Shown in pieces: positions 3,018 through 24,255 of a stretch of DNA of 64,000 nt (positions within the stretch are counted from its first letter, which is position 1; every line of letters begins with the position of its first letter). The notes beneath the pieces are model-generated. The model saw nothing but the letters and a program-made list of their open reading frames with translations, made no database searches and had not been told where the DNA came from. The position numbers were made by a program, and so were the translations under genes. Source of the DNA: a virus. Its lineage: Duplodnaviria > Caudoviricetes. The DNA is taken from the IMG/VR virus record IMGVR_UViG_3300046488_000208, positions 1,285 to 65,284 of that record. The stretch is one strand, 5' to 3'.

Positions 3018-3038
3018 TTTTAATTTAATATTACTAAT

Positions 3039-9085: not shown

Positions 9086-9089
9086 AAAC

Positions 9090-9337: not shown

Positions 9338-9425
9338 CAACTACATTCTAAACAGGGTGTTCACCCTATGGGTCGCCAGATTGAAAATGACCCCATGTGA
9401 GAGCATGTAAAAATCTGGCAAAAAC

Positions 9426-9498
9426 GCAGAAGTAACTCAATTGGTAGAGCGTCAGCCTTCCAAGCTGAAAGTTGCGGGTTCGAGTCCCGTTTTCTGCT
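9426..9498 (+). tRNA. tRNA-Gly(TCC)
   Basis: gcagaag/tttctgc U73, tcagc-ctTCCaa-gctga. Confidence 0.92.
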
Positions 9499-9632
9499 CA
9501 AAGTCCCATCCTGCTGTGGGTGTGCAAGGTCAGTTAATCTATCCTGACTGTTCTCCGGAATCCCTTTGATGCACATGGGACACTTTTTTAAATCGGGGAA
9601 GATACACTGTTTTATCGCAGTGCCCCGTCCAT

Positions 9633-9704
9633 GCGAAGTGTAGCTTAATTGGTAAAGCGTCTGTCCACCAAACAGAGGAAGCGGTTCGAATCCGACATTT
9701 CGCA
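9633..9704 (+). tRNA. Non-canonical tRNA, anticodon ACC (Gly?)
   Basis: 8-bp acceptor gcgaagtg/catttcgc, 3-bp T stem, tctgt-ccACCaa-acaga. Confidence 0.65.
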
Positions 9705-9759
9705 CAAAATAATACTTGCAAAAGCAAAATTTTTCATATATTTATTGAAAATTTTTATT

Positions 9760-9966
9760 ATGAAAATGAAATATGTTTTATTGGAGTATGATTACACAAC
9801 TTACTGTCAGGGAACAGCAGACCATAATAGTGGAATGATGTTAGTTCATTGTCCGAAAGATGCAACTTTTATTGAAGTTCGGGCAGCATTAATGAATCTC
9901 AGACACGTTAAAGGTGAATACGAAATTGATATAAAAAGTGTAAGTAATGCAACAATTGAATGGTAA
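9760..9966 (+). CDS. Hypothetical protein
   Basis: ORF trimmed to ATG after the tRNA. Confidence 0.55.
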   Translation: MKMKYVLLEYDYTTYCQGTADHNSGMMLVHCPKDATFIEVRAALMNLRHVKGEYEIDIKSVSNATIEW

Positions 9967-9969
9967 TAT

Positions 9970-10043
9970 AGCGATGTAGTCTCAATGGTTAGAGCAGGAC
10001 TCTTATAAAGTCAAGGTTGTGGGTTCAAGTCCCACCTTCGCTA
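9970..10043 (+). tRNA. tRNA-Ile(TAT)
   Basis: agcgatg/cttcgct, gact-ctTATaa-agtc, TTCAAGT. Confidence 0.85.
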
Positions 10044-10197
10044 CGTATGAAACACAGTGCTCATAGTACGAAACTGTTATAAAGGAGTAGTTAAACCGAA
10101 ATTCAGAAGAAAATCGGCTGTGTTTCAAACTTTTTAAAAGTTCTTTGAGTGATTAACCGATTTTGTTAATCCATGTATTTATGTTAAAAATAAATAT

Positions 10198-10530
10198 ATG
10201 GAAAAAATTTGTAAGAAACATGGTTTGACAGAATATGTCATTCGTATTGATGGACGTTCAAGATGTAAAAAATGTGCTGTTGATGCTGTTCAAAAAAGAA
10301 GACATGTATTAAAAGAAAAAGCAGTTGCATACAAAGGTGGAAAATGTGTAAAGTGTGGATATAATAAATATGTTGGAGCACTTGAATTTCACCATACTAA
10401 TGGGGATAAAGAATTTGGTATTGGTGCAAAAGGTTATACAAGAAGTTGGGAAAAAGTAAAAGAAGAATTAGATAAATGTATATTAGTATGTTCAAATTGT
10501 CATAAAGAAATTGAAGGAAATATAATTTAA
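10198..10530 (+). CDS. HNH endonuclease
   Basis: GGKCVKCGY..ALEFHH..ELDKCILVCSNCHKE. Confidence 0.8.
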   Translation: MEKICKKHGLTEYVIRIDGRSRCKKCAVDAVQKRRHVLKEKAVAYKGGKCVKCGYNKYVGALEFHHTNGDKEFGIGAKGYTRSWEKVKEELDKCILVCSNCHKEIEGNII

Positions 10531-10531
10531 T

Positions 10532-10604
10532 GCCTCAGTAGCTCAGTGGTAGTAGCGGTGGTCTGTTAAACCAAAGGTCGTAAGTTCAATCCTTACCTGG
10601 GGCG
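10532..10604 (+). tRNA. tRNA-Asn(GTT), second copy
   Basis: gcctcag/ctggggc G73, ctGTTaa loop. Confidence 0.88.
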
Positions 10605-10703
10605 CAACAAATTGGTAATATGAACGATAGCATTGATTTTGCACAATAGCACGAACAATGCTACCATTCAAAAGTGATGATAACATATTAAATATCAATA
10701 ACT

Positions 10704-10979
10704 ATGAAAAAAAAACCATTTTTACCTATGTCATGTAAAGGAGTAAAATGCATGATAGTTGGTTGCAGAGAACTTGCTTCTCATAAAGTTGGTGAAGAAA
10801 ATATTTGGTGTAGAGATGAAGGTATTGGAAATGACGAGTATTTAAAACATCAACAGTTTGATGAATCACATAATGCAACAACTTATTTATGTGAAGAACA
10901 TTTTAAATTTGTTATGAAAAGAGAAACTGAATATAATACTATTGAAGATAATCGATTTGAAGGTCGATTAATAAAATGA
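10704..10979 (+). CDS. Cys-rich hypothetical protein, paralog of 18092..18352
   Basis: Shared CKGVKCM..GC..LASHK.GEENIW...TTYLC..MxRETEYNTI. Confidence 0.7.
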   Translation: MKKKPFLPMSCKGVKCMIVGCRELASHKVGEENIWCRDEGIGNDEYLKHQQFDESHNATTYLCEEHFKFVMKRETEYNTIEDNRFEGRLIK

Positions 10980-11263
10980 AAATTGATTATTTAACACCTG
11001 TTTATGTTGATAAGATTGAAAAGCCACTAGAAGAAGGCAAATGTTATATTTCAAAAGAATTTGGCATTGCAATTCACTTATGTGCTTGCGGATGTGGGGA
11101 AGAAACAGTAATGGATTTAAAACCTAATTGGAAAGATGGATGGAATTTAATTGAAAATATTGATGGTACAATATCATTTACTCCATCAATTGGTAATTGG
11201 TCCGGTCAAAACCCGTATCATGCACATTATTTTATTACAAATAATAAAATAATTTGGTTATGA
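10976..11263 (+). CDS. DUF6527-like protein
   Basis: AIHLCACGCGE...SFTPSIGNW...HAHYFI. Confidence 0.7.
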   Translation: MKIDYLTPVYVDKIEKPLEEGKCYISKEFGIAIHLCACGCGEETVMDLKPNWKDGWNLIENIDGTISFTPSIGNWSGQNPYHAHYFITNNKIIWL

Positions 11264-11271
11264 AAATAAAT

Positions 11272-11344
11272 GCCGAAATAACTCAATTGGTAGAGTATCT
11301 GATTCGTATTCAGAATGTTGCAGGTTCGATTCCTGCTTTTGGCT
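11272..11344 (+). tRNA. tRNA-Thr(CGT)
   Basis: gccgaaa/ttttggc, tctga-ttCGTat-tcaga. Confidence 0.88.
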
Positions 11345-11362
11345 CAAAATTTTGATATAATA

Positions 11363-11578
11363 ATGGAAAGATTTCATATATTTGAATGGAACAAATGGGA
11401 TAAAGAATATTCCATGATTATCCTTTCAGAAGAAGATATTAAAAATGAAATTAATTTAAGGGGTGCAGGTTTTGAAATACTTGTTATTCCCAATAAATTT
11501 GAAAATACATCAAATGAATATCTCGATTTTTGGAAAAAAATAACTTTAATGAGAAGTGGAAGAATAATATACATATAA
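11363..11578 (+). CDS. Hypothetical protein
   Basis: ORF between tRNAs, trimmed to ATG. Confidence 0.5.
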   Translation: MERFHIFEWNKWDKEYSMIILSEEDIKNEINLRGAGFEILVIPNKFENTSNEYLDFWKKITLMRSGRIIYI

Positions 11579-11582
11579 TAAT

Positions 11583-11667
11583 GCCGATATCCTATAGTGG
11601 TCGATTAGGCTAGTTTTGTAAACTAGATGCTAATAACTCACCGGGGGTTCGAATCCCTCTATCGGCT
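11583..11667 (+). tRNA. tRNA-Thr(TGT) with 16-nt variable region
   Basis: gccgata/tatcggc, ctagt-ttTGTaa-actag. Confidence 0.8.
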
Positions 11668-11682
11668 CAAATTCAAATAGTT

Positions 11683-11901
11683 ATGGAAAGTTTGCCCAGT
11701 GAAAATCACGAAGAACGTTTCTTGAAGAAATTACAATCAAGATTTAAAGAGTATGTTGATTTAACTCCGTACTTCATAAAAGTTGCAATTGTCACAATAA
11801 TTGTTTTCCTTTGTTCGATATTTATTTGGTACAGTTTTCTTCGTATAGATAAAAACAAGCCAGTAATTGAAAACATTGTTGACCAATTTAAAAAGAAATA
11901 A
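11683..11901 (+). CDS. Small membrane protein
   Basis: One hydrophobic segment. Confidence 0.5.
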   Translation: MESLPSENHEERFLKKLQSRFKEYVDLTPYFIKVAIVTIIVFLCSIFIWYSFLRIDKNKPVIENIVDQFKKK

Positions 11902-11905
11902 ACCT

Positions 11906-11977
11906 GCCTCCATAGTTCAACGGATAGAACGGATGCCTTCTAAGCAACAAATTGGGGTTCGATTCCCCGTGGGGGTA
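11906..11977 (+). tRNA. tRNA-Arg(TCT)
   Basis: gcctcca/tgggggt, ctTCTaa loop. Confidence 0.88.
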
Positions 11978-12094
11978 CAAATAAAATTAAAATATGTTTC
12001 CTTATTTTTCTGAAATGGCAAAACAACAACGAAAAGATGAATTGAAATTCGCTTTGGTGTTGTTAATATTAGCAGTTATTGCAACTGCACTTAT

Positions 12095-12119
12095 GCTCTT
12101 ATAGTTTAATGGATAGAAT
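12095..12119 (+). pseudogene. tRNA relic (5' acceptor strand and D arm only)
   Basis: gctcttatagtttaatggatagaat resembles the 5' end of the Arg tRNAs, then breaks off before the HNH gene. Confidence 0.55.
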
Positions 12120-12185
12120 TAAATACATTATTTTTTATGTCTATACGATTTTTATAAATAATGAAGTATTTATGATAAAAATACC

Positions 12186-12803
12186 ATGAATACTTATAAT
12201 GAAAAAGAACTTGAAAAGTTAATAATTTACGAAAATAAAAGTTATTCAGAAATTGGAAAAATATTTGGTGTTACTGGTGGTGCAATAAAAAAAGCAGCAC
12301 TAAGATTTGGAATTTCATTACCGAGAAGACGTGATATTAATCCCAATGAAACATTTAATAAGGGGAAAGCATTTATTGAATATAAAAGGGGTATATGTAA
12401 AAATTGTTGTGTTGAAATTATCATGTATCCTGAAAGAGATAGTGAATTTTGCTCCAATAAATGTCATTGCGAATATGAATATCGACAATATATTGAAAGA
12501 TGGAAAAATGGTAAAGAAAGCGGAATCATCGGGAAATTTTCAATGTCAAATCACATAAAAAAATATTTCTTTGAAAAATTTAATAATAAATGTCAAAAGT
12601 GTGGCTGGGGAGAAAAAAATGAACACAGTAATAAAATTCCACTTCAACATCATCATGTTGATGGAAATTCATTAAATAATAAAGAAGAAAATATTGAACT
12701 TTTATGTCCAAACTGTCATTCATTAACAAAAAATTTTGGAAGTAGAAATAAAAATGCAACTAATGGAAGGTCCGAATATTTTGGAAGAAAAAAGCACAAG
12801 TAA
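12186..12803 (+). CDS. HNH homing endonuclease with N-terminal HTH
   Basis: KCQKCGW...LQHHHVDGNSLNNKEENIELLCPNCHS. Confidence 0.85.
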   Translation: MNTYNEKELEKLIIYENKSYSEIGKIFGVTGGAIKKAALRFGISLPRRRDINPNETFNKGKAFIEYKRGICKNCCVEIIMYPERDSEFCSNKCHCEYEYRQYIERWKNGKESGIIGKFSMSNHIKKYFFEKFNNKCQKCGWGEKNEHSNKIPLQHHHVDGNSLNNKEENIELLCPNCHSLTKNFGSRNKNATNGRSEYFGRKKHK

Positions 12804-12883
12804 AACGTAATTGGATGACCGTCCCAGTTTCCTAAACTGGTATCACTAATGTGATATGTGGGTTCGAGTCCCACCTCTGTGCA
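12794..12883 (+). tRNA. tRNA-Arg(CCT) with long variable arm
   Basis: ccagt-ttCCTaa-actgg; variable stem tatcac/gtgata; bulged acceptor; overlaps HNH stop. Confidence 0.75.
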
Positions 12884-12898
12884 CTAAAAACAATTGAT

Positions 12899-13141
12899 AT
12901 GGCAACAGCGATTTGTCCTAAATGTGGAAAAGTAATTTATGCACCTGACAGTTCAGTGCAATTGGAAAAAGATTTTGTCTTGTGTTGTGACGAAGTAATA
13001 TACATACCAACAAATCAAGATTATGACATTTTCTTTAATGAATTATTAAATCCTTCTGAACCCAATGAAGCATTGAAAAAAGCTGTATCACGTTATAAAA
13101 AACGAACTAATGAAATTCACGATAGAGAAACTCAAGAATAA
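12899..13141 (+). CDS. Hypothetical Zn-ribbon protein
   Basis: CPKCG; trimmed to ATG. Confidence 0.5.
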   Translation: MATAICPKCGKVIYAPDSSVQLEKDFVLCCDEVIYIPTNQDYDIFFNELLNPSEPNEALKKAVSRYKKRTNEIHDRETQE

Positions 13142-13316
13142 ACTTGAATATACTGATGGAAAGACTTTTGTTTCACAAACCGGATATGCATTTATAGATG
13201 AAAGTGGCTGTTGTATAATAATTGTTTACGGTGAAGGTCGCAGAGACGGAATGTCTAAGTATTTAACAGAAGACGGTGACGTACTGCACATAAAATATAG
13301 AATAATGCCTTTGTAG
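13110..13316 (+). CDS. Hypothetical protein
   Basis: ORF track. Confidence 0.45.
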   Translation: MKFTIEKLKNKLEYTDGKTFVSQTGYAFIDESGCCIIIVYGEGRRDGMSKYLTEDGDVLHIKYRIMPL

Positions 13317-13381
13317 CATAACGGATAATGCGCTTGTCTTCGAAACAAGGTCTTATGGGGGTTCGAGTCCCTCCAGGGGTA
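13307..13381 (+). tRNA. tRNA-Arg(TCG)
   Basis: gcctttg/caggggt, cttgt-ctTCGaa-acaag. Confidence 0.88.
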
Positions 13382-13435
13382 CAAAAAACCTTAAGTATTA
13401 GGGTTTATAGTATAATAAAAAGTAATGTGAAAACA

Positions 13436-13714
13436 ATGGAATTAATACCTATATTTGTTGATACTATTCCAATTGAAATTGAAGAAGGAAAAGTATTTAT
13501 TACAAAAAAATATTGTGTTGCAGTACATCTTTGTGCGTGTGGTTGTGGTGAAAAAACAGTTATGAACTTTAAACCCAATTGGAAAGACGGTTGGACATTA
13601 ATTGAAAATCCCGATGGTACGGTTTCATTTTCTCCGTCAATTGGTAATTTCACTGGTCAAGACCCATATCATGCACATTATTTTATAGTGAATAACAAAA
13701 TAGTTTGGTGTTAA
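13436..13714 (+). CDS. DUF6527-like protein, paralog of 10976..11263
   Basis: AVHLCACGCGE..KPNWKDGW..SFSPSIGN..YHAHYF. Confidence 0.7.
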   Translation: MELIPIFVDTIPIEIEEGKVFITKKYCVAVHLCACGCGEKTVMNFKPNWKDGWTLIENPDGTVSFSPSIGNFTGQDPYHAHYFIVNNKIVWC

Positions 13715-13857
13715 AAATAAAATGAAATGAAAAAACTGATTGATTATTTTACGTGTCGTCCGACAAGGCAAGCATTGCTATTTGGATTGACGATTCTTTT
13801 TGGTGAAATCATATTTTTTATTTTATTATGTACCGGAACTATTGTGGTACAATAAAT

Positions 13858-13932
13858 GCACCCGTAGCATAATTGGATTAGTGCATTGGTCTACGAAACC
13901 AAAGGTTGTGAGTTCGAATCTCACCGGGTGTA
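13858..13932 (+). tRNA. tRNA-Arg(ACG)
   Basis: gcacccg/cgggtgt, ttggt-ctACGaa-accaa. Confidence 0.92.
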
Positions 13933-13974
13933 CAAAACAAAACTCAAACGTATTTATATTAAAGGTTTGAAACG

Positions 13975-14649
13975 ATGATTGAATATAACGAAAATGAATT
14001 ACGTCAAATTGTAGCGGAATGTAATACGTATAGGGATGTTTTACATAAATTTGAAAGAAATGAATCAGGTGCATCATATAAGACACTACATAGACGTTTA
14101 AATGAATGGAAGATTGATACTTCACATTTTTTAAACAGAAGTGAGTTAATGATAGCAAATCAAGGAATTTATTCGAGAAAAAGCAATGAAGAAATTTTTA
14201 GTATAAATGATGTTGGAAGAAAAACGATAAAAGACAGAATAATTGCTGAAAATTTAATTGAATATAAATGTAAGTTTTGTGGTCAAGATGAAAATTGGCA
14301 TGGTAAAAAAATTTCATTAATTCTTGACCATATAAATGGTGTTAACAATGATAATCATCTGGAAAATTTGAGGTTCTTATGTCCAAATTGTAATGCAACA
14401 CTGGAAACACATTGTAAAGGAGCATCCGCATTATCACCGAAACCAATTAAAGTAAAAAAGATAAGAATAAGTCCACCAAGATTAAGTCAAAGAAAAGTTA
14501 AAGAGCGACCATCATTGGATGAACTAAACGGAATGTTAAAAACAATGTCATATCGTGCAATCGGTAAAAAATATAATGTTAGTGACACTGCAATTAGAAG
14601 GTGGATAAATTTATATCATAAAACAAATATATTGGATAAAATAATTTAA
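13975..14649 (+). CDS. HNH homing endonuclease with C-terminal HTH
   Basis: LILDHINGVNNDNHLENLRFLCPNC; SYRAIGKKYNVSDTAIRRW. Confidence 0.85.
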   Translation: MIEYNENELRQIVAECNTYRDVLHKFERNESGASYKTLHRRLNEWKIDTSHFLNRSELMIANQGIYSRKSNEEIFSINDVGRKTIKDRIIAENLIEYKCKFCGQDENWHGKKISLILDHINGVNNDNHLENLRFLCPNCNATLETHCKGASALSPKPIKVKKIRISPPRLSQRKVKERPSLDELNGMLKTMSYRAIGKKYNVSDTAIRRWINLYHKTNILDKII

Positions 14650-14713
14650 AATGATAATTATGAAGTATCTCAACACATCGTAAATCAATCCTGCTATTGA
14701 TTATGCGATTGGT

Positions 14714-14962
14714 ATGTTATTTAGACAAACAAAAAAGCAGGAACAGCCAGAACTCGTGAAAGACGATGCATTCTACAGAAAGCATCCGAAAATTATGAGA
14801 CTTTGGCTTGTGGAAATCACGTCTACGGATGGTGAAATCCAAAAGTTTTACGTTAGCGGTATGACAAAATTTGATGCCTATGAAAAGGCTGATGGTTACA
14901 GGTACTGGACTGCAGACGTTGGACTTAAAAATAAGTTGAGTACTTTTAGGCTTATGCCTTAA
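14714..14962 (+). CDS. Hypothetical protein
   Basis: ORF track. Confidence 0.55.
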   Translation: MLFRQTKKQEQPELVKDDAFYRKHPKIMRLWLVEITSTDGEIQKFYVSGMTKFDAYEKADGYRYWTADVGLKNKLSTFRLMP

Positions 14963-14993
14963 AGAAAAATTGCAGGGGAAGACCCTGCAACAT

Positions 14994-15067
14994 GCACCGG
15001 TAGTTTAACTGGAAAGAATTGCCCCGTCTCAGGGGTACGATATGTGGTTCGAATCCCATTCGGTGTG
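14994..15067 (+). tRNA. Irregular tRNA, Asp(GTC) or Glu(CTC) ambiguous
   Basis: gcaccgg/tcggtgt G73; anticodon region tgcccc-gtctca-ggggta (6- or 8-nt loop); bulged T stem. Confidence 0.55.
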
Positions 15068-15077
15068 CAATAACATC

Positions 15078-15148
15078 GCAGGTGTAGCATAGGGGTAGTG
15101 CATTGGCTTGCCGAGCCGAGGACGAGGGTTCGATTCCCTTCACCTGCT
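15078..15148 (+). tRNA. tRNA-Gly(GCC)
   Basis: gcaggtg/cacctgc U73, ttGCCga loop. Confidence 0.9.
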
Positions 15149-15206
15149 CTACTAAGTTCGAAAATCTTTTTTCGCATTTCATAGTATTTATATTAAAGTA
15201 AATATT

Positions 15207-15884
15207 ATGAAATGGAATAAAGAGGACGTTGAAAAAGCAATTGCACTTCATAAGGAAGGAAAGGGATTTCAAGAAATTGCCAATGTATTAGGTAGAAATT
15301 TTAGGTGTGTTCAGATAAAATTAAATAAACTTGGGTATCACCAAAATTATGCTGAGACCAAAGAAACCAAAGCGTGTCTTAACTGCAGTAATGTATTCAC
15401 ATCGTTAATAAGTAAAAACAGAAGATTTTGTTCACAGTCATGCGGTGCAGAATATAACAATAGAAAATACCCCAAACGAGCCAACATAAACAAACTGAAA
15501 AATTGTTTACATTGCGGTCAGCCATTAAATTCACGTCAAACAAAATTTTGTTCCCCCAAATGTAGTGGCGAATATTTTCAACAAGAAAATTTTAAGAAAA
15601 TTGAAAATGGGAATGTGTTATTTCCCGCTACCATGTATAAAAAGTACCTCATACATAAGCACGGTAACAAGTGTATGAAGTGTGGCTGGAATGAAGTAAA
15701 TCCGACTACGGGTTTAGTGCCAATTCAACTGGAGCATAAGGACGGTAATTCTGAGAATCATAACTTAAATAATTTGGAATTGTTGTGTCCCAATCATCAT
15801 TCATTGACTCCAACATTTGGTGCACTGAACAAAGGCAATGGTAGAACCAAGAGAAGAGAAAAAAGAAAATCTCTTGCATATTAA
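15207..15884 (+). CDS. HNH homing endonuclease
   Basis: KCMKCGW...IQLEHKDGNSENHNLNNLELLCPNHHS. Confidence 0.85.
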   Translation: MKWNKEDVEKAIALHKEGKGFQEIANVLGRNFRCVQIKLNKLGYHQNYAETKETKACLNCSNVFTSLISKNRRFCSQSCGAEYNNRKYPKRANINKLKNCLHCGQPLNSRQTKFCSPKCSGEYFQQENFKKIENGNVLFPATMYKKYLIHKHGNKCMKCGWNEVNPTTGLVPIQLEHKDGNSENHNLNNLELLCPNHHSLTPTFGALNKGNGRTKRREKRKSLAY

Positions 15885-15922
15885 GGAATTTAGTGCGATA
15901 TTTACAACAAAATTTATAAATC

Positions 15923-16201
15923 ATGAAAAGCAAAAAATCTTTTAAAGGAAAACTAATTAAATTAGTTGTTGAAAATTTATGTGAAACAGAATTTATGTGG
16001 ATTTCACAAACAACATTGCAAGAATATCTCGATAAACATCTGGCATTTAAAACAGAGGTTGTGAATTTCACGTTAAATGAGTATCAAGTTGGAAAAGATG
16101 CCGAAATAAAATTCATTGACGAAGACAATAAACCTCGTGTGATTGACCTTCATATTGCACAAATTCAAAGGTCAGTAAATGAACTCGTAAAAATACAATA
16201 A
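15923..16201 (+). CDS. Hypothetical protein
   Basis: ORF track. Confidence 0.55.
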   Translation: MKSKKSFKGKLIKLVVENLCETEFMWISQTTLQEYLDKHLAFKTEVVNFTLNEYQVGKDAEIKFIDEDNKPRVIDLHIAQIQRSVNELVKIQ

Positions 16202-16205
16202 AACA

Positions 16206-16646
16206 ATGAAAGAATCTATTCAAACATCAATAAATGCTCTCGACAAACAAATGAGTATTCTTGGAGCAGCAAAAGAACAGACCGACAACGATAACTCCAA
16301 ACGATTGTTATCAATTGCCATAACAAATATCCAAACAGCAAAACTTTATCTCAAAGAAGCAAAAGACTTGGGATATACTGAATTTATTTTGGAATCCCCT
16401 AAAGGATGTGAAGATAATACATCGGGTGAAGCACCATTGGATGAAAAAATAATAAAATTTCCAATACCTACATTTGAGGAAGTACAAGAAAAAATTGTAA
16501 AATCTTTAAGTAATACGAATTGGATAACAAGATATTCGGCAATTAGGATGATTGACTATGTTATATTACCCACACTTGGTAGTGAAGCAGATGTTAAATT
16601 TTGGAATGGAATTTCTGATTTATTAAAACAACAAGAGAAATCATAA
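16206..16646 (+). CDS. Hypothetical protein
   Basis: ORF track. Confidence 0.6.
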   Translation: MKESIQTSINALDKQMSILGAAKEQTDNDNSKRLLSIAITNIQTAKLYLKEAKDLGYTEFILESPKGCEDNTSGEAPLDEKIIKFPIPTFEEVQEKIVKSLSNTNWITRYSAIRMIDYVILPTLGSEADVKFWNGISDLLKQQEKS

Positions 16647-16736
16647 TGTGATGAACATGGCATAGACCTACCCCCATCACAATCTCGCCAGAATCTCGAC
16701 AATCTGGCGAAATCCGGACAATAATCCGGACAACAG

Positions 16737-17040
16737 TAAAAAATAACACCGAGGATTCATCGCTATCCGGACACTAATCAGGACATTTTGTCCAGATAAA
16801 TGTCCGGATAGAGGAAGTTCAGAACACCTTTGCTAAATGCGGAAGATTAGGTTGAGAAATGAAGCATCAGAGTACCAACTGTTTAAAATCGTTACTACCG
16901 CAGAGATTAGAAGCACTACTTGTAGTGTGGGGTGCAAGCCATACAGACTTAGAGGGAAAGCAACTCTGTGATAGTCGGGTTGGTGCTTAGATAAATGATG
17001 ATTAACAACAGAATTCTGGCTACGCTCATGTTATTTTTTA
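16737..17040 (+). ncRNA. rnpB: RNase P RNA
   Basis: P1 taaaaaataaca..gag/ctc.tgttatttttta; P3 atccggaca/tgtccggat; GAGGAAGTTCAG, GGTGCAAG, AGATAAATGAT and ACAGAATTCTGGCTAC resemble the conserved RNase P core. Confidence 0.8.
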
Positions 17041-17047
17041 CTTTTAC

Positions 17048-17076
17048 TGTAACATTTTCAGAAATTTTACGTATAA
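17048..17076 (+). promoter_or_regulatory. ECF-type promoter TGTAAC-N16-CGTATAA before rplL
   Basis: Same motif at 19322, 27187, 30757, 38417(-), 57281(-) and 13 copies in 58-64 kb. Confidence 0.7.
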
Positions 17077-17102
17077 TTGCATAATAATTAATAATAGAAA
17101 TA

Positions 17103-17480
17103 ATGGCAACAAATCCAAAATTATTCGCAATTGCTGACACATTGACAAAATTGACGGTGTTAGAAGCAAAACAACTCATTGATATTCTTGAAAATGATTA
17201 TGGCATCAAGGGTCAGAGCATTGTAACTCCGATTGGTGTACCAACACCCGAAGTTGCAGTAAAAGAACAGACTGAATTTGATGTTTATCTGAAAGAAATT
17301 GGTGGACAAAAATTACATGTCATCAAAAAAGTTAATGAATGCTTGAGATTGGGACTCAAAGAATCAAAAGAACTGGTCGATAAATGTCCGGGTCTTCTGA
17401 CAGGAAAAGTATCAAAAACCGATGCATTGATACTTAAAACCGAACTGGAAAATGTGGGTGCAGTAGTTGAAATAAAATAA
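17103..17480 (+). CDS. rplL: Ribosomal protein bL12 (L7/L12)
   Basis: LTVLEA.QL..ILE..YGI; EQTEFDV.L...GGQKL.VIK.V....LGLKESKELV; LE.VGAVVEIK. Confidence 0.92.
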   Translation: MATNPKLFAIADTLTKLTVLEAKQLIDILENDYGIKGQSIVTPIGVPTPEVAVKEQTEFDVYLKEIGGQKLHVIKKVNECLRLGLKESKELVDKCPGLLTGKVSKTDALILKTELENVGAVVEIK

Positions 17481-17482
17481 TT

Positions 17483-17788
17483 ATGAAAGGAATCATAAAA
17501 TATCAACAAAAGTTGTATAAAAAGGCAAGTGACCCTCACAAAGTTAAAAAGGGCGACTTGATTAAACTTGAATGTAAGAGAGGTAGTGATTACTTTCAAT
17601 ACAATGGTATTTATACAGTTATCAGCGATTCCAGAGAGATTCACATTAAAAATTATAAGGGAGAAGGTTTAACATTATGCTTGAAACTTGGATATAACGT
17701 ATTTTATGATGATTATTTCAGATTAGTTGAAACCAAAAGAAAGAAGTCATTACCAAACGTTTTAAAAGAAGAACAATATGAAAACTGA
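17483..17788 (+). CDS. Hypothetical protein
   Basis: ORF track. Confidence 0.55.
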   Translation: MKGIIKYQQKLYKKASDPHKVKKGDLIKLECKRGSDYFQYNGIYTVISDSREIHIKNYKGEGLTLCLKLGYNVFYDDYFRLVETKRKKSLPNVLKEEQYEN

Positions 17789-18095
17789 ATTGTGGAAAAT
17801 ATTGGTTCCAGCTTCCGGCAACAATGACAAGGAGTTCACTTATGAGCATCATAAGGCATGGGATGCATTTGTCAAAGACCTTACAGGTGGAGTAACCGTC
17901 ATGAAGACTGCCAAAGGTCAGTGGGTAAGTCCACACGGTCAGTTATATGTTGACAGAATGATTCCTTGTAGAATTATCTGTACCAAAGAGCAAATCAATA
18001 AAATTGTTGATTTTACTTTAGTGCATTATGACCAAGAAGCAATTCTTGCATATAAAATTAGTAGTGTAGTAATTTTAAAACATAAAAAGCAATGA
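17778..18095 (+). CDS. Conserved phage hypothetical protein
   Basis: HHKAWD..V...TGG.T....AKGQW.SP.G....MIPCRI. Confidence 0.6.
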   Translation: MKTELWKILVPASGNNDKEFTYEHHKAWDAFVKDLTGGVTVMKTAKGQWVSPHGQLYVDRMIPCRIICTKEQINKIVDFTLVHYDQEAILAYKISSVVILKHKKQ

Positions 18096-18352
18096 GCAAT
18101 ACAATTAAACCCAAATTGCCGTTAACATGTAAAGGAGTAAAATGCATGAAAGTTGGTTGCCAAAATCTTGCTTCACATAAAATAGGCGAAGAAAATATTT
18201 GGGACAAAGAACTTCAATCAGAAGAGCATCAAGCATTTGAAAACAGTCATAATTTAACAACATATTTATGTGATAATTGCTTTAATCAAATAATGACAAG
18301 AGAAACTGAATATAATACAATTAAAGACGACAGATATGGGAATGTTCGGTGA
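18092..18352 (+). CDS. Cys-rich hypothetical protein, paralog of 10704..10979
   Basis: Direct sequence similarity. Confidence 0.65.
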   Translation: MSNTIKPKLPLTCKGVKCMKVGCQNLASHKIGEENIWDKELQSEEHQAFENSHNLTTYLCDNCFNQIMTRETEYNTIKDDRYGNVR

Positions 18353-18554
18353 AATAAATGCAGAAGCCAATGCCAAGCAATTGGAAGGCATAATTCTTGA
18401 CCTTATAAAAGGTGACCGTTGGAGAGACTGCAGAAGTGCAGCCAGAGGCGTTGCCAAAGAAAAATTATATCCTTGGTATCTCAGTGAATGCTCAGAAGCG
18501 TTTATTGAAGCAAATCCCGAAATAAAAAAAGAATTTGGAGAATTGAAATCATGA
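18336..18554 (+). CDS. Hypothetical protein
   Basis: ORF track, coupled overlaps. Confidence 0.5.
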   Translation: MGMFGEINAEANAKQLEGIILDLIKGDRWRDCRSAARGVAKEKLYPWYLSECSEAFIEANPEIKKEFGELKS

Positions 18555-18715
18555 AAACAAAACTGGATATCGGAAATTTGCTTCAATTAGCAGAAGAATT
18601 AGTGTATGATGGCAGAATTGAATTTGCAGAAGAAGCCGTAATTCCTGTTCAAATGTTAGAAACAGAGGAAGGCGAAAAATATCAATTGAAATTAGTAATG
18701 ACTTTAATATAGCAA

Positions 18716-18804
18716 GGAGAGGTGCTTGAGTGGTCGAAAAGGGCAACCTGCTAAGTTGTTGGGCGACTAAAATTGCCCCGTAGGTTCGAATCCTATCCTC
18801 TCCG
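18716..18804 (+). tRNA. tRNA-Ser(GCT), second copy
   Basis: ggagagg/cctctcc G73, gcaac-ctGCTaa-gttgt, long variable arm. Confidence 0.9.
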
Positions 18805-18869
18805 CAAACAAATCATGAGTTGAGTCAACCCTTTCTTAAATATTAAAGTATTTATAATAAAATATTGTT

Positions 18870-19289
18870 ATGAATACTAATGAAAAGGGAGATATCGGTT
18901 TGGCTGCTGTGATTGCAGATGTTGTCAGAAAAGGATTTTTTGTGTTTTTGCCGTTCTCAGATAGAACACATGTCGATTTGATTATCGCAGATAAGAATAT
19001 GAAAATTCAAAGGGTACAGATTAAATATATTACCGTAAATAAAACAGGTGTATTACAAATCGTAACATCAAGTGTTGTAAACGGTAAAAAAGTACCTGTT
19101 GACCTATCTAAGACAGATATTTGGGCAATTTATTGTCCCAATACCGATAAAATATATTATGTCACAACACTTGAATTATTGGGTAAAAGGGCAATGAGTT
19201 TAAGAGTTAGTGAGACAAAACTAAGTCAACCCGGAATACATCTTGCTGACAATTATTTAGATTTAAGCAAAGTGTGGCACATATTATAG
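18870..19289 (+). CDS. PD-(D/E)XK endonuclease (group I intron-associated type), free-standing
   Basis: KGDIG.A.V....G..VF.P......DLI......RVQIK; DIWAIYCP. Confidence 0.75.
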   Translation: MNTNEKGDIGLAAVIADVVRKGFFVFLPFSDRTHVDLIIADKNMKIQRVQIKYITVNKTGVLQIVTSSVVNGKKVPVDLSKTDIWAIYCPNTDKIYYVTTLELLGKRAMSLRVSETKLSQPGIHLADNYLDLSKVWHIL

Positions 19290-19356
19290 AAAACCAGCAA
19301 GTCAAAAAATTTGACTTTTTCTGTAACATTTTTATTAGTATTTACGTATAACTATT

Positions 19357-19641
19357 ATGAAAAAGTTACCGACAATAGAAATCACCGAACTATTCATGGT
19401 CAAAGCAGACTGGAATAGAACCTTTATTGGTCAGATAATCAGAAAAACTGATGAAGACGGTCTGTCAATTAATCTTGGCAACGTCACAGTAGACGAAGGA
19501 AAAATCTGGAGCAAAGCTGAAACCCAAGAAGAACTTGGAAAATATCTTGATGATATTTGTACATTAAAACTCGACTGTAACCTTCACGGTAACGGTGGTG
19601 TTACTTCTATTCTTGCTGAGACTCTGTTCAATCACAATTAG
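19357..19641 (+). CDS. Hypothetical protein
   Basis: ORF after ECF-type promoter. Confidence 0.55.
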   Translation: MKKLPTIEITELFMVKADWNRTFIGQIIRKTDEDGLSINLGNVTVDEGKIWSKAETQEELGKYLDDICTLKLDCNLHGNGGVTSILAETLFNHN

Positions 19642-19911
19642 ATGCAGGACTTTGAACTACTTAAGCGAACATACCCTGTCAGTGAGTTTGATAGATTTTG
19701 TGATGGGTATGAATATATATTAAAAAATAGTACTGAAGATGAGAGAGAAGAATGGGGAATTGATGTAAATGAATTACAAAGAGTAATTACAAAGGGAGAG
19801 AAGTACATATATCAAGTAGCAAAGGAAGGACAGGAATTCAAGACAATGTATTTATGTTTTACCAACTATGCTATTATAAGGAAAAAAATATACAAACTTG
19901 AAGATGATTAG
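19642..19911 (+). CDS. Hypothetical protein
   Basis: ORF track. Confidence 0.55.
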   Translation: MQDFELLKRTYPVSEFDRFCDGYEYILKNSTEDEREEWGIDVNELQRVITKGEKYIYQVAKEGQEFKTMYLCFTNYAIIRKKIYKLEDD

Positions 19912-20203
19912 TATAAAAGAAAAATTTACTGAAATAGCAAAAAAATATCACTTGCATCATTATGGTGATTTGAAATCAGCCATTGAAGAAATGATTATAT
20001 ACATAAATGATATGAAAGCAATTGTTAAAGTTGATGTCAGAAAAGAATTACCGTTAGAATTACAAACAGTAACTACCGATAAAGGTGAATGTTATTACAG
20101 TCATGTACACCTGCAATGGTTTCATGCAGAGAATAATATGCCATTTGATGCAAATGAATTAAAACCACAATATTGGGAGAAATTAATTGATGCAAGAAAG
20201 TAA
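19898..20203 (+). CDS. Hypothetical protein
   Basis: ORF track. Confidence 0.5.
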   Translation: MKMISIKEKFTEIAKKYHLHHYGDLKSAIEEMIIYINDMKAIVKVDVRKELPLELQTVTTDKGECYYSHVHLQWFHAENNMPFDANELKPQYWEKLIDARK

Positions 20204-20404
20204 ATGCAAGGACTTGGCTATTTATATGATGAAAACACGGGAGAAAAAATTCTCTGTTTGGTCCGACAAGGCAGTTATGGCAGGTATTTGAAACGCAGAA
20301 AATCAGGTAAGGATGGATTTCATTTGACAGATGAAGAAATATATTTAAGAGAAAATAAGGAAAAATTAGAAGAATTGAAGGCAAATAAAAAAATATTTTG
20401 TTAA
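20204..20404 (+). CDS. Hypothetical protein
   Basis: ORF track. Confidence 0.5.
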   Translation: MQGLGYLYDENTGEKILCLVRQGSYGRYLKRRKSGKDGFHLTDEEIYLRENKEKLEELKANKKIFC

Positions 20405-20408
20405 ATAC

Positions 20409-20480
20409 GGGCATATAGTTCAGAGGTAGAACATTGGTCTCTAAAACCAATTGCCACGGGTTCGAGTCCCGTTATGCCCT
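20409..20480 (+). tRNA. Amber suppressor tRNA (anticodon CTA)
   Basis: Clean cloverleaf: gggcata/tatgccc U73, ttggt-ctCTAaa-accaa, acggg-TTCGAGT-cccgt. Confidence 0.88.
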
Positions 20481-20630
20481 CAAAAATTTATGAATATGAA
20501 AAAAATTAAATTGATTTTTATAATTTTATTTGTTTTGACAATGATGTTATTATCATCATGCAATCCAAAATTTTGTCCTGCATATGCAGATAGAGGACAT
20601 AAAAGTGATACACATTCTAAAAGTTAATTA

Positions 20631-20960
20631 ATGAGTAGAACTAAAAAAGATTTGAAAAGCAACAGAAGGGGTTTTGGTCTATATGGACATAAGCCTCAGA
20701 GAAAATTAACTCCTTTTATTCATGATGCAAATAAAATTGCAGGCAGGAATGAAGTATTAGTGCACCAACCTGATAATGATATTAGTCAAGAGGGATTCGA
20801 TAACATGTATTGTTCAGATGGTTCACATTGGCATAATGCAAAGACTGTCAGGGCAAAAAGAAAACAAGTACGGGCAGAAAGAGATTACATAACATCACAG
20901 GCAAGGGCAAGAATAAAAAAACAAGACAAAAAAGAAATTGATAATTTATTAGGAAATTAA
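20631..20960 (+). CDS. Basic hypothetical protein
   Basis: K/R-rich termini (MSRTKK...ARARIKK). Confidence 0.6.
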   Translation: MSRTKKDLKSNRRGFGLYGHKPQRKLTPFIHDANKIAGRNEVLVHQPDNDISQEGFDNMYCSDGSHWHNAKTVRAKRKQVRAERDYITSQARARIKKQDKKEIDNLLGN

Positions 20961-21112
20961 AATAATTGTAGTAATTTTGAACTCTCTAAGTATTTATATA
21001 CCGCAGAGTATTATTAACAATTAAATTTAAAACAATGAAGTAGGTTAACAAAAATGAAAAAATAGGTTATCAATTCGTAACTAACTTAGTATTTATAGTA
21101 AATAAAAGCATT

Positions 21113-21817
21113 ATGTACGATACTGAGTCCTTCATTAAAGAAGCCAAAAAAATTCATGGCGAAAAATACAACTATTCATTAGTCAATTACAAGAACGTTT
21201 CAACAAAAATTAGAATAATTTGTTCAAAACATAATGTTTTTGAACAAACTCCAAAAAATCATATCCTTAGAAAATCTGGATGTCCGAAATGTGCTATCGA
21301 ATATAAAGCAAATAAATTGAAACTTTCCCAAACCGAATTTATTATTATTTCGAATAAAACACATAGTAATAAATATGATTATTCCTTGGTCAATTATTTT
21401 AACAATAAAACTCATGTCGATATAATATGCCCAATACATGGTGTTTTTGAACAAGCACCTGCTCACCACATGAGAGGTATTGGATGTCCAATTTGTAACG
21501 ATTCAAAGGGTGAATTAAAAATAAAATCTTTTTTGAATAAAAATCGAATAACATATATTCGAAATAAAATGTTTAATAATTGTAAAGATATTGGTAAATT
21601 AAAATTTGATTTTTATTTACCTAATTTAAATATTATGATTGAATTTGATGGCATTCAACATTTTAAGCCAAATCATGCTTTTGGTGGAACTGAAGAATTT
21701 AATAATATTCAAAGAAGAGATAATATAAAAAATAAATATTGTGATGAAAATTTAATACAATTAATAAGAATAAGGTATAATGAAAATATTGAAAACAAAT
21801 TAAATTTTTTAATATGA
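21113..21817 (+). CDS. Putative homing endonuclease (DUF723-like Zn repeats plus PD-(D/E)XK/Vsr-like domain)
   Basis: KYDYSLVNY...IICPIHG.FEQ...H..G.GCP.C repeats; FDFYLP....IEFDGIQHF. Confidence 0.75.
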   Translation: MYDTESFIKEAKKIHGEKYNYSLVNYKNVSTKIRIICSKHNVFEQTPKNHILRKSGCPKCAIEYKANKLKLSQTEFIIISNKTHSNKYDYSLVNYFNNKTHVDIICPIHGVFEQAPAHHMRGIGCPICNDSKGELKIKSFLNKNRITYIRNKMFNNCKDIGKLKFDFYLPNLNIMIEFDGIQHFKPNHAFGGTEEFNNIQRRDNIKNKYCDENLIQLIRIRYNENIENKLNFLI

Positions 21818-22173
21818 AAGATAAGTAGATAATAAAATTAGTTACTGTTGTTCGACAAGATTTGAGTGCTGGACAACAATTAGTTCAATCTGGGCACGCA
21901 ATTGCTGAATTCATTCAGCATTTTCCCTCAGAATTTCAAGAGTGGAAAAGAGATTCAAATTATCTCATTTCGTTATCGATTGATAACGAAGAAAGACTTC
22001 AAAGACTATTTTACAAATTACAGGACAATGGTGCTAATGTTGTTGCATTCACAGAACCCGACATTGACAACCAGTTGACCAGTATTTGCTATTATGGTAC
22101 GCCCGAAATGCGTAAAATTACGCAGAATTTAGACTTAGCACTTGAAGAAGTTAAAGTCGCAATTAAAAATTAA
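21814..22173 (+). CDS. Peptidyl-tRNA hydrolase 2-like protein with in-frame TAG at codon 5
   Basis: MKDK*IIKLVTVVRQDLSAGQQLVQSGHA...FTEPDIDNQLTSIC; Pth2 first strand lies upstream of the TTG start in the ORF track. Confidence 0.7.
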
Positions 22174-22242
22174 AGTCGCAATTAAATTTATAAATGAAGT
22201 ATTTATTTTCGCAATTCAAGTATTTATATTAAATTTGTAATT

Positions 22243-23037
22243 ATGATAGATAAATTAAATTTAAAAGAAAATTCGTTCTACATCGGTACTTGTAGAAACA
22301 CTAATATTGCTCAATGGCATAAAGGTGAATTTGTTTTCATTGGTTTTAATTTTGGTATTCCATATATTGAAACCATTAAATATTATGGTGACATTAAAAA
22401 TACTTCTTTTGATGGCTTTATCCCCATTGAAGAAATTAATTTTAGTGTTGATAATATAATTAAAGAAAAAAATTTGCAAGACTATAAAAATGGTGCTCGT
22501 AAAATATATCAAAATTTAAATATCAATAATTTAAATTACGAGATATGGAAACCCATTCCAAAATATGAAGGACTTTATTCTGTTTCTAATTTGGGTAGAG
22601 TAAAAAAACATGGAAAATCTTTATCTGGCAATAAAATAATGAAACAAAATTTTTCACGTGAATATTTGGTCGTTGGTCTAACTGATTATGAACATATTCG
22701 TAAAACATATAGAGTACATAGATTGGTAGCATTAACATTCAAATATAATGATAACACATCACTTGAGGTCAATCATATAAATGGAATAAAAACCGATAAT
22801 CGTGATATTAATTTAGAGTGGATTGAACATGCTGAAAATTCGAAACATATGTATACTTCGGGAAATGTGTGCAAAAAATTGAAACTCGAAGAAGTAATGG
22901 AAATTCAACGTTTGTTATGTAAAGGTGACTTTTTACAAAAAGATATTGCAAAAAAATTTAACATTAGTCGAAGTACAATATCTGAAATTAATACAGGTAA
23001 AAAATGGAAAAATATTAAATCAATGAAACATTTATAG
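22243..23037 (+). CDS. NUMOD4/HNH homing endonuclease
   Basis: EIWKPIPKYEGLYSVSNLGRVK; VHRLVA..F; VNHINGIKTDNR..NLEW; C-terminal HTH. Confidence 0.85.
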   Translation: MIDKLNLKENSFYIGTCRNTNIAQWHKGEFVFIGFNFGIPYIETIKYYGDIKNTSFDGFIPIEEINFSVDNIIKEKNLQDYKNGARKIYQNLNINNLNYEIWKPIPKYEGLYSVSNLGRVKKHGKSLSGNKIMKQNFSREYLVVGLTDYEHIRKTYRVHRLVALTFKYNDNTSLEVNHINGIKTDNRDINLEWIEHAENSKHMYTSGNVCKKLKLEEVMEIQRLLCKGDFLQKDIAKKFNISRSTISEINTGKKWKNIKSMKHL

Positions 23038-23176
23038 ATAGACATCAGACCGCCATAATAATTTGATATCACAAATTGTGATATCAAGATTTCATAAAAT
23101 GCGTAACGCAAACTATGTAATATAAACAAATTTGTTTACACAAAATAAATTAAATTAATCTTAAATAAACATTATC

Positions 23177-23512
23177 ATGGAAACAATAGCAAAAACCGAT
23201 ATCGCAAAAATGAAAGCCGATATTAAAGACAAAGTTGAACTTCAGAAGTTCTATAAAAATCAGAGAAAAACCGATAAAATCATCGGTGAAAGAAAGATGC
23301 CTGCAAGTGAAGCAACTTATAAGCATCAGACTAACAGAGAAGATTTACGAGTAATGTACGCAGCTTATGGTATTGCCAGAGGCAGGAGTTTTTCTCAGAT
23401 TGAAAATCATTATCCGGAAGACGGTCATCCACTTCAAAAATATCAAAAAACAATTGATAGAATTTTGGAGAAGTACACGGTGTTAGTGAAGGTTGAAGTA
23501 CCAACCGAATAA
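23177..23512 (+). CDS. Conserved phage hypothetical protein
   Basis: LRVMYAAYGIARGRSFSQIE; followed by terminator at ~23519-23541. Confidence 0.65.
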   Translation: METIAKTDIAKMKADIKDKVELQKFYKNQRKTDKIIGERKMPASEATYKHQTNREDLRVMYAAYGIARGRSFSQIENHYPEDGHPLQKYQKTIDRILEKYTVLVKVEVPTE

Positions 23513-23604
23513 AATAAAAAGGGCGTAGTTGCCCTTTTTTTCTTGCATATTTGCTACGGATTGTGTAGTTTTACGCAAAATAACTTTATATTAATCTCAA
23601 ATGA

Positions 23605-24255
23605 ATGTCAGAAGAGAAACAGGATGGAGTAATATTCACTCCAAAAATTGAAGAAGAAGGAAGAATTGACGAGTTTCCACTTATTAAAGAAGTCGATGTA
23701 GAGGATAAAATAATTGAAGTAACACCAAGTGTACAATCAGTTATCCCACCAGAAGAACTTCAAAAAATCAATGATGAAATTAAAGCCGAAATAGTGGCTG
23801 AAGAAAAAAATGACGGAGCAATTGACGGTGCTGTTGACGGTGCTGTTGACAATGATTCTGAAGATTTAAACATAAAAACTTATGTCAAAATAACACCAAC
23901 CCTTTATATTAAACCAGCAGGTAGTGAAAAAAATAAAGAAGGCGAAGATGTCAAATTATATAAGATTTTAAATCCTGAAACTAATATTGTAGAAAAACGA
24001 CAATTAACTGATGGCGAAAAACACGATATTTTAGTCCGTGATTTAAAAGAATCTCGCATAAAATTTCATCCAATAAAAAATGCGGTAAAAACTGTCGGAG
24101 TAACCACAGTTACCAGTTCAATTGGCAGAAAACGCTTGGTGAAAGACAAAGGAGTACAAACAAACATAACTACCAATCAGTTCGACAAAGACTATCGTAA
24201 GAAACGTCAACGTAAGAACAGAATGGCACGGGCATCCCGTAAAGCAAGTCGATAG
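23605..24255 (+). CDS. Hypothetical protein, acidic N-terminus and basic C-terminus
   Basis: ORF track. Confidence 0.6.
   Translation: MSEEKQDGVIFTPKIEEEGRIDEFPLIKEVDVEDKIIEVTPSVQSVIPPEELQKINDEIKAEIVAEEKNDGAIDGAVDGAVDNDSEDLNIKTYVKITPTLYIKPAGSEKNKEGEDVKLYKILNPETNIVEKRQLTDGEKHDILVRDLKESRIKFHPIKNAVKTVGVTTVTSSIGRKRLVKDKGVQTNITTNQFDKDYRKKRQRKNRMARASRKASR

Follow-up and report, generated by a model that had tools for sequence, protein, structure and literature searches.

Introduction

The prfB gene, which codes for release factor 2 (RF2), contains an early in-frame UGA that is passed by a +1 frameshift, so that its output is tied to the efficiency of termination at that codon and the gene senses its own product. 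In another known system, minigenes of the lambda bar type provoke drop-off of peptidyl-tRNA, which gives the substrate of peptidyl-tRNA hydrolase (Pth). In this study we focus on a phage locus that shares features with both. It lies in a 64,000-nucleotide (nt) stretch of viral DNA (Duplodnaviria, Caudoviricetes; positions 1,285 to 65,284 of IMG/VR record IMGVR_UViG_3300046488_000208, a contig of 65,284 bp with 33% G+C), hereafter the window, and consists of a gene for a Pth2-like protein preceded by a very short in-frame leader and an amber codon, and of a suppressor tRNA gene with anticodon CUA, about 1.3 kb 5' of the protein-coding core. Comparison with homologous loci suggests that the gene is probably a translational gate whose opening would depend on the phage's own suppressor tRNA.

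As in prfB, an early in-frame stop is found in a translation-factor gene whose output would depend on termination there. Unlike prfB, no +1 frameshift site is found, the gated core continues in the frame of the leader, and the component sensed would be the product of a separate tRNA gene. The leader also resembles the lambda bar minigenes in being an open reading frame (ORF) of two to four codons, such as ATG AAG TAG; here, in contrast, this mini-ORF is in frame with the hydrolase core and abuts it, and a role of drop-off is putative.

Suppressor tRNAs have been described in phages with the standard code as well as in recoded ones. The Xanthomonas jumbo phage XacN1 encodes two CUA suppressor tRNAs and a peptidyl-tRNA hydrolase while using the standard code; according to the available text of the report, its authors read through 18 amber terminators, and the targets were not identifiable (PMC5852040). 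An early TAG in the hydrolase gene, which we observe in the XacN1 relatives XbC2, CBB and Kaldavass, would offer such a target. In recoded crAss-like, Lak and other gut phages, a phage suppressor tRNA likewise leads translation through in-frame stops. These occur in 26-71% of the genes, mostly structural and lysis genes, and the tRNA was proposed to act as a timer that blocks translation until it is made (Borges et al., 10.1101/2021.08.26.457843, available text). The present locus differs from these in that the code is standard and that one stop, fixed in its N-terminal position, interrupts a single conserved gene next to the tRNA. The available text of that preprint has zero mentions of hydrolase or Pth. 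The PTH2 proteins of jumbo phages belong to the same protein family as the one studied here, and the available text on them describes no in-frame stop or suppressor tRNA, the word 'suppressor' having 0 occurrences (Iyer et al. 2021, PMC7824862). More generally, no description of such a gate was found in the open literature, including the available text of these recoding, jumbo-phage comparative and XacN1 papers; supplements and subscription journals were outside the scope of this search. Control of phage translation by suppressor tRNAs is thus known, and what would be new is its confinement to one conserved gene in standard-code genomes.

Results

The suppressor tRNA and the gated gene

According to ARAGORN, the suppressor tRNA gene (20409..20480, + strand) closes an array of 19 tRNA genes, which spans 7370-20481 and lies entirely on the + strand. 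The program places it at 20409-20481 with anticodon CTA, and the Rfam model RF00005 matches 20409-20480 over its full length (model positions 1-71) with 74.9 bits for a gathering score of 29. The acceptor stem starts with G1-C72, the discriminator is U and CCA is not encoded. The anticodon loop reads CU-CUA-AA, and the identical 7-nt loop is present in 83 of the 105 suppressor tRNAs that we collected; the closest one among relatives, from locus L126, is 92% identical. The gene is therefore predicted to form an elongator-type cloverleaf whose anticodon would pair with a stop codon.

The amino acid carried did not emerge from comparison with the 74 tRNAs of the window and of the complete relative G001, since even the nearest ones reach no more than 64-67% identity and have mixed amino-acid assignments. 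When the 105 suppressor tRNAs were clustered by single linkage at 75%, 87 of them fell into one chained cluster, which was likewise uninformative in this respect. Initiator tRNAs are characterised by an unpaired 1:72 position and three G-C pairs in the anticodon stem. We rejected the possibility that the tRNA-CUA is initiator-like and starts translation at TAG, because positions 1 and 72 are paired, the anticodon stem lacks three consecutive G-C pairs, and an in-frame ATG precedes the stop in every gated locus.

From position 21814, the window reads ATG AAA GAT AAG TAG ATA ATA AAA TTA GTT, sharing its frame with the ORF whose terminal TAA is at 22171-22173. It comprises a four-codon leader, ATG AAA GAT AAG (21814..21825, + strand), the in-frame TAG followed by the A of ATA, which we call the gate (21826..21828, + strand), and a Pth2-fold core of 114 residues plus TAA (21829..22173, + strand). 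The first in-frame canonical start after the gate is a TTG at 21862, 11 codons on, and the first ATG comes 93 codons on. A preliminary description of this DNA, made from the sequence alone, had reported a clean tRNA-CUA at 20409-20480, a leader ATG AAA GAT AAG TAG in frame with a Pth2-like core, and no ATG right after the TAG. The tRNA stands with its full-length RF00005 match, the sequence reads exactly as described, and the distance to the first in-frame ATG agrees with the third statement.

The assignment of the core was approached with Pfam, a profile search of the PDB, an AlphaFold model, Foldseek and an alignment of 88 sequences. Pfam family PF01981 (PTH2) matches residues 2-76, on profile positions 1-81 of 115, with 32.1 bits (cut-off 23; E 1.5e-7). 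Solved Pth2 chains are also matched in sequence by the profile built from the 88 family members, namely 2zv3 (E 3.6e-9), 1wn2, 1rzw/3erj, 1q7s and 1xty. The AlphaFold model of the core has a predicted local distance difference test (pLDDT) value of 94.2 and a predicted template modelling score (pTM) of 0.87. Among the Foldseek matches listed, the 13 best are all Pth2/Bit1 structures (TM-score 0.57-0.78, mostly 0.68-0.78; E 2e-8 to 2.4e-4) and are followed by 2gax, a protein of unknown function. The protein thus belongs to PF01981 and is predicted to adopt the Pth2 alpha/beta fold.

Eleven residues are invariant in the 88-sequence alignment (R9, G15, Q20, H23, W39, L49, L57, F74, E76, D78 and T84, numbered from the I at 21829). 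Family members span 32-83% identity, and the core of the window, which is 58-83% identical to its close relatives, keeps all of these residues. In the HMMER alignment to 2zv3, a sequence alignment made without side-chain superposition, residue 16 of the family (Y/Q) faces the second Lys of the Pth2 G-K-G-K motif. A Lys and an Asp are reportedly essential in archaeal Pth2, a point on which PMC3488237, a paper about Pth1, is of no help. The protein is therefore best named Pth2-like, with an uncertain active site and a putative hydrolase activity.

Conservation of the early stop

Homologous loci were collected from three sources. A tblastn search against phage records matched 239 records, of which seven were inspected. 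IMG/VR loci with their flanks were taken first as a set of 10 and then as 80 of 118 relatives, and metagenome contigs provided 80 of 176 close-clade relatives. Each locus was anchored on the conserved K-L-[VI] strand through the profile of an alignment (A1), then scanned upstream to the nearest in-frame stop. A locus was called gated when an in-frame ATG is followed by no stop until the gate stop, which is in turn followed by the core with no ATG, GTG or TTG in between.

In six of the seven inspected phage records, an ATG, one to three codons, a TAG and then ATT or ATA stand directly before the core; these six are five huge uncultured phages of 462-735 kb and the Tenacibaculum phage pT24, the exception being Lak-B7. 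Of the 90 loci that phage records and IMG/VR provided together with the window, 72 are gated, 17 have an ordinary start and one is truncated at its 5' end, which gives 72/89 assessable loci; all of the 80 close-clade metagenome loci are gated. Deduplication on identical 360 nt around the gate reduced 169 loci to 133 distinct ones, of which 119 are gated and 14 have a normal start. On the tree, 11 of the latter group in a single well-supported clade and the other three are long branches. The preliminary description had proposed that a sense codon in the homologues would refute it, and that their 5' ends be aligned for a conserved TAG and for co-occurrence with tRNA-CUA. The opposite of a sense codon was found, as the stop is kept in those 119 distinct loci, and in 116 of them it is a TAG, with a CUA tRNA in the flank of 89.

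The leader itself is not conserved in sequence. In 74 of the 119 gated loci it consists of the ATG and one further codon, mostly AAG or AAA for Lys, and a few leaders have 7-38 codons. Directly after the stop, on the other hand, constraint is apparent. Over codons +1 to +11 of 74 close relatives, the amino acid is kept while the codon varies: Arg at +8 is written AGA, AGG, CGC, CGA or CGT, so that both codon families are represented, and four codons encode Thr at +5. This synonymous variation indicates that translation of the frame already covers the codon directly behind the stop. That codon is ATT in 42 gated loci, GTA in 37, GTT in 27, ATA in 7 and another codon in 6, and the predominance of GTA, GTT and ATT makes reinitiation there unlikely.

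A second in-frame TAG inside the core was observed in L003 (3100), L071 (6094), L098 (6100), L092 (6115) and L087 (2410). It occupies the same place, codon 33-34, in the clade of L003, L071 and L098. All five loci carry CUA tRNAs, three of them in two copies.

Agreement between stop and anticodon

The gate stop is TAG in 116 of the 119 distinct gated loci and TAA in the other three. A suppressor tRNA gene is present in the flank of 92 gated loci, on the same strand and either 0.15-5.7 kb upstream or 0.3-3.6 kb downstream. Its anticodon agrees with the stop in every case: 89 loci combine a TAG gate with a CUA tRNA, three combine a TAA gate with a UUA tRNA, and no locus combines a gate with a non-matching suppressor anticodon, whereas 27 loci have a TAG gate and no suppressor tRNA in the sampled flank.

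The three TAA-gated loci (L014, L185 and L186) are each placed among TAG-gated relatives in a separate well-supported (starred) clade, and the starred branches force three changes. Each of the UUA tRNAs is most similar to CUA tRNAs (78-85% identity), and the best match of the one from L186 is the tRNA of L169, which belongs to the same protein clade. This amounts to stop and anticodon having apparently changed together three times independently. A UUA anticodon still reads UAG by wobble, so that such double changes are easy to order. Chance linkage of a tRNA array to the gene does not predict this covariation.

The gate in cultured phages

In the Tenacibaculum phage pT24 the gate is present, and the record annotates a tRNA-Sup 2.6 kb upstream. 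Three Mimasvirus-type phages, Xanthomonas phage XbC2, Pectobacterium phage CBB and Erwinia phage Kaldavass, have ATG GCx CAx TAG AAT GAA before the core, with no start codon for about 20 codons past the TAG. Each encodes a tRNA-CUA on the same strand, 2.9-3.7 kb further 3'. In CBB, a GAGGA motif, read by eye, ends 8 nt before the ATG of the leader. The records of all four phages start the gene past the stop and thereby cut a conserved N-terminal part, which matters for annotation: in XbC2, CBB and Kaldavass the coding sequence begins at an internal GTG or ATG and the conserved N-terminal strand is lost, and in pT24 it begins 81 nt into the match.

Bxz1-type mycobacteriophages (IkeLoa, Breeniome) and Myrna have a tRNA-CUA 130-300 nt 3' of their Pth2 gene. 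These phages show linkage of hydrolase and suppressor and not a gate, as read-through is unneeded there. In Myrna (L261), the tRNA at 2987-3058, 130 nt after the Pth2 gene, is a tRNA-Ser in the record and has anticodon CUA according to ARAGORN. In Lak-B7 (L006), a tRNA called UUA with an odd anticodon stem-loop (2341-2413) is located about 500 nt upstream of ATG AAT ATC TAA ATA (2896-2910). This string is in frame with the Pth2-like gene, but an ATG follows four codons later, and the case is ambiguous.

According to one alternative explanation, the leader is an independent upstream mini-ORF and the hydrolase is made by reinitiation or from a non-canonical or downstream start (ATA/ATT, or TTG 21862) with no help from a suppressor. 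AUU and AUA can initiate weakly, and ATT or ATA follows the stop in 49/119 loci, but GTA or GTT, neither a known initiator, does so in 64/119. The window does have a TTG 11 codons past its stop; those 11 codons are nevertheless conserved as protein, and a downstream start would lose the conserved first strand. The mycobacteriophages provide a precedent, with a GTG directly after the TAG as the annotated start. Reinitiation, however, gives no reason for the stop to be in frame or for its identity to track the anticodon, the latter being seen in three independent TAA/UUA switches and 0/92 mismatches. We regard this explanation as improbable, and suppressor-dependent read-through of the gate as the better account of these loci.

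Genetic code of the genomes

Phage suppressor tRNAs are best known from recoded crAss-like and Lak phages (10.1101/2021.08.26.457843, available text), and the Pth2-like gene could be merely one of many TAG-read genes in a phage that recodes its late genes (code 15). The window alone leaves room for this, as the late genes of the 65-kb contig are unseen: none of the 10 large ORFs scanned in the window is a structural gene, and helicase-like genes, TnpB-like transposases and similar genes are found instead. The five relatives with a second TAG in the core also speak for it. Reading TAG as sense, however, raises the summed length of + strand ORFs of at least 100 residues in the window only from 15375 to 16321 residues, and the coding density from 0.856 (code 11) to 0.878.

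Two complete relatives were examined in the same manner. G001, the contig of locus L009 (362,763 bp, rated complete), has 55 tRNAs and a transfer-messenger RNA (tmRNA). Its tRNA-CUA is the last of the 55, and the gate follows about 330 nt later. With a crude greedy ORF cover, its coding density is 0.901 with code 11 and 0.908 with TAG as sense, and that of LR756504 (636 kb, complete) is 0.917 and 0.919, a gain of only 0.2-0.7 points. Stops with at least 60 open codons on both sides number only 3 for TAG in G001, against 66 for TAA and 19 for TGA, and only three leader-plus-TAG configurations of that genome, that of the Pth2-like gene among them, lack a nearby start. TAG ends 9/93 crude gene calls in the window, 27/427 in G001 and 79/771 in LR756504, that is 6-10%. 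Internal stops were found in the terminase frames of 0/5 records searched.

Many interrupted genes and a clearly higher density under code 15 are thus not observed. Moreover, the stop lies at one fixed place before the core across proteins of 32-83% identity, where recoding predicts scattered stops, and we consider code-15 recoding very improbable as the origin of the gate. The statement of the preliminary description that other genes of the window show no TAG fragmentation is borne out by the small ORF gain and the 9 TAG-ended calls. Its broader claim of a non-recoded genome holds for the complete relatives G001 and LR756504 and is more than a 65-kb contig with no structural gene in sight can show by itself. 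Because these two genomes use the standard code, a suppressor has very few possible clients there, and the gated gene would be one of them.

The contig of G001 (L263) has also been deposited as a contig of a 'Candidatus Paceibacterota' metagenome-assembled genome, with a terminase, the 55 tRNAs and the tmRNA, and a rating of 100% complete. Two other relatives are filed under Patescibacteria and as an uncultured archaeon. All three are probably mis-binned phage DNA. Assignment of a host from matches to cellular genomes was rejected for this reason, as the three matches obtained are all such contigs and hold no host information.

Insertion of a homing endonuclease at the gate

A free-standing homing endonuclease gene (21113..21817, + strand; phrog_559 'HNH endonuclease', E 7.7e-64; Pfam DUF4379 and DUF723) directly precedes the core, its TGA overlapping the ATG of the present leader (ATGA). 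In blastn comparisons, the match of six relatives (L115, L125, L126, L008, L009 and L116) to 20630-21048 continues straight into the match to 21833-22189. Since these relatives are contiguous across 21048/21833, the endonuclease gene together with its flanks (21049-21832) is an insertion, placed exactly at the gate. It left behind an ancestral leader and gate, ATG AAG TAG (21035..21043, + strand), then GTT up to 21046, with a promoter-like motif still 5' of them, so that the old gate stands at 21041 and the new one at 21826. The presence of a gate on both sides of the insertion fits selection for the gate.

The old leader and gate are in frame with the endonuclease ORF, 23 codons before its ATG, and read-through there would extend the endonuclease at its N terminus.

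That the gene is dead in the window, as a pseudogene produced by an endonuclease that inserted precisely at its 5' end or through an assembly error at 21826, a base outside the coverage of independent contigs, is the most improbable explanation, given that the same stop occurs in 119/133 distinct loci from many samples, that the core is intact, 58-83% identical to close relatives and with its invariant residues kept, and that the insertion left a new in-frame ATG-leader-TAG.

Discussion

Taken together, the conserved stop, the constraint after the stop and the covariation of stop and anticodon support the translational switch proposed in the preliminary description, and we consider it likely that the Pth2-like gene is a translational gate that depends on the phage's own suppressor tRNA. 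Translation would start at the ATG of the very short leader, and the early in-frame stop, UAG here, would be decoded by the phage suppressor tRNA (CUA) in competition with release factor 1 (RF1). Little or no full-length protein would then be made until this tRNA has been transcribed, processed and charged, and the output would scale with suppressor activity relative to termination. As the stop lies in a non-conserved leader, the inserted residue should not matter, and any residue may do for the read-through that we infer. Such indifference fits the acceptor stems and discriminators of the window and G001 tRNAs, which differ. Termination is poor and drop-off frequent on very short nascent chains; a stop at codons 3-5 would keep truncated protein from being made and may shift the competition from the release factor towards the suppressor.

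The purpose that we prefer is a feed-forward or timing link, by which the hydrolase would be made once, and in proportion as, the suppressor is active. It could then clear peptidyl-tRNA or stalled ribosomes that arise from suppression or from the takeover of translation by the phage. The data equally allow a negative feedback that acts on the suppressor tRNA, or an interlock for a protein that would harm the cell. The link to minigene drop-off and to tRNA-Lys sequestration raised in the preliminary description is putative.

Several observations weigh against a suppressor-dependent gate and have to be set beside it. Within the window, the TTG at 21862 could start a product of 103 residues without the first strand. 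No contig of four sequencing runs covers 21806-22200, and base 21826 is therefore without a counterpart in these independent data. Among the homologues, 27/119 gated loci have no suppressor tRNA in the sampled flank; 19 of these have less than 1 kb of upstream sequence, and the other 8, LR756504 included, lack one despite 3-6 kb on either side. LR756504 has a gated gene yet no canonical tRNA-CUA among its 38 tRNAs. The sole candidate (281045-281120, - strand, within L208), about 100 kb off and on the other strand, has an 8-nt anticodon loop containing CUA, for which ARAGORN gives the 4-base anticodon tcta. Conversely, L100 and L102 carry CUA tRNAs yet have an ordinary ATG start. The mycobacteriophages mentioned above read ATG TAG GTG or GTG TAG GTG, and the second GTG is the annotated start and has the better Shine-Dalgarno spacing. 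The tree behind the three independent changes comes from a quick IQ-TREE search on 109 columns with support from the Shimodaira-Hasegawa-like approximate likelihood-ratio test (SH-aLRT) only. Furthermore, TAA ends 19/25, 13/21 and 4/6 crude gene calls in the TAA-gated loci, and it ends the Pth2-like gene itself in two of the three. As TAA is still the main terminator there, an efficient ochre suppressor would be costly, and suppression must be partial or favoured by the early position of the stop.

The contigs that do match the window speak neither for nor against the gate. DNA contigs of the runs X13 and X14 match 20400-21546 with zero differences, and contigs from RNA libraries, X23 (21014-21285) and X24 (21280-21430), possibly reflect DNA carry-over.

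A wider interpretation can be offered only tentatively, and we hold it to be doubtful at present: suppressor tRNA and gated Pth2-like gene may form a portable two-part circuit, with the hydrolase as a dedicated and perhaps the main client of the suppressor, the pair sensing the balance between suppression and RF1 termination in the infected cell. Under this interpretation, the circuit would be conserved across at least two and perhaps three phyla of jumbo-phage hosts; the records name Tenacibaculum, then Xanthomonas, Pectobacterium and Erwinia, and Mycobacterium for the linkage only. If so, the release of the tRNA-directed hydrolase might serve host takeover, counter-defence or control of the suppressor, and the circuit would account for 'orphan' suppressor tRNAs in standard-code jumbo phages.

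The suppressor tRNAs of standard-code phages had no known target, as is explicit in the available text of the XacN1 report (PMC5852040), and the gate would give them a concrete client. It would represent a natural 'amber switch' of one gene, placed in translation quality control, and joins two subjects that have been studied separately, phage tRNA arrays and the rescue of peptidyl-tRNA and stalled ribosomes.

Gene neighbourhood of the locus

The Pth2-like gene sits between two homing endonuclease genes, the one at 21113-21817 and a second one (22243..23037, + strand; NUMOD4, HNH_3 and HTH domains) directly 3' of it, which is reported here as context. A promoter-like motif, GTATTTATA, is found at 20990..20998 (+ strand), 45 nt 5' of the ancestral leader, and the same motif occupies the same place in relatives. 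In its longer form, (A)GTATTTATA, it occurs in 10 copies on the + strand of the window and one copy on the - strand, with positions 7477, 13950, 15184, 18848, 20990, 21089 and 22220, plus three more. Six copies start 22-25 nt 5' of the ATG of an ORF, several of these ORFs being endonuclease-like. The motif is a candidate phage promoter.

Just 5' of the suppressor tRNA, two conserved small ORFs, ORF-A and ORF-B (19357-19911), abut in frame with a TAG as their sole separator (...N TAG ATG...). Of the 26 relatives with the abutting layout, 19 have TAG and 7 have TAA at the junction, a count that is no test since the rows are mutually related. Neither ORF matches a Pfam family, and ORF-B matches only weakly a PHROG of unknown function. 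The junction is a possible second client of the suppressor, which would yield a read-through fusion.

Two TnpB-like transposase genes are located at 40768-42051 and 54853-56028 (phrog_506, E 3.6e-134 and 5.3e-120, respectively). Finally, 5 of the 9 TAG-terminated crude gene calls of the window fall inside 18870-24255, a 5.4-kb segment that holds both the suppressor tRNA and the gated gene, where an even spread would place about 0.8.

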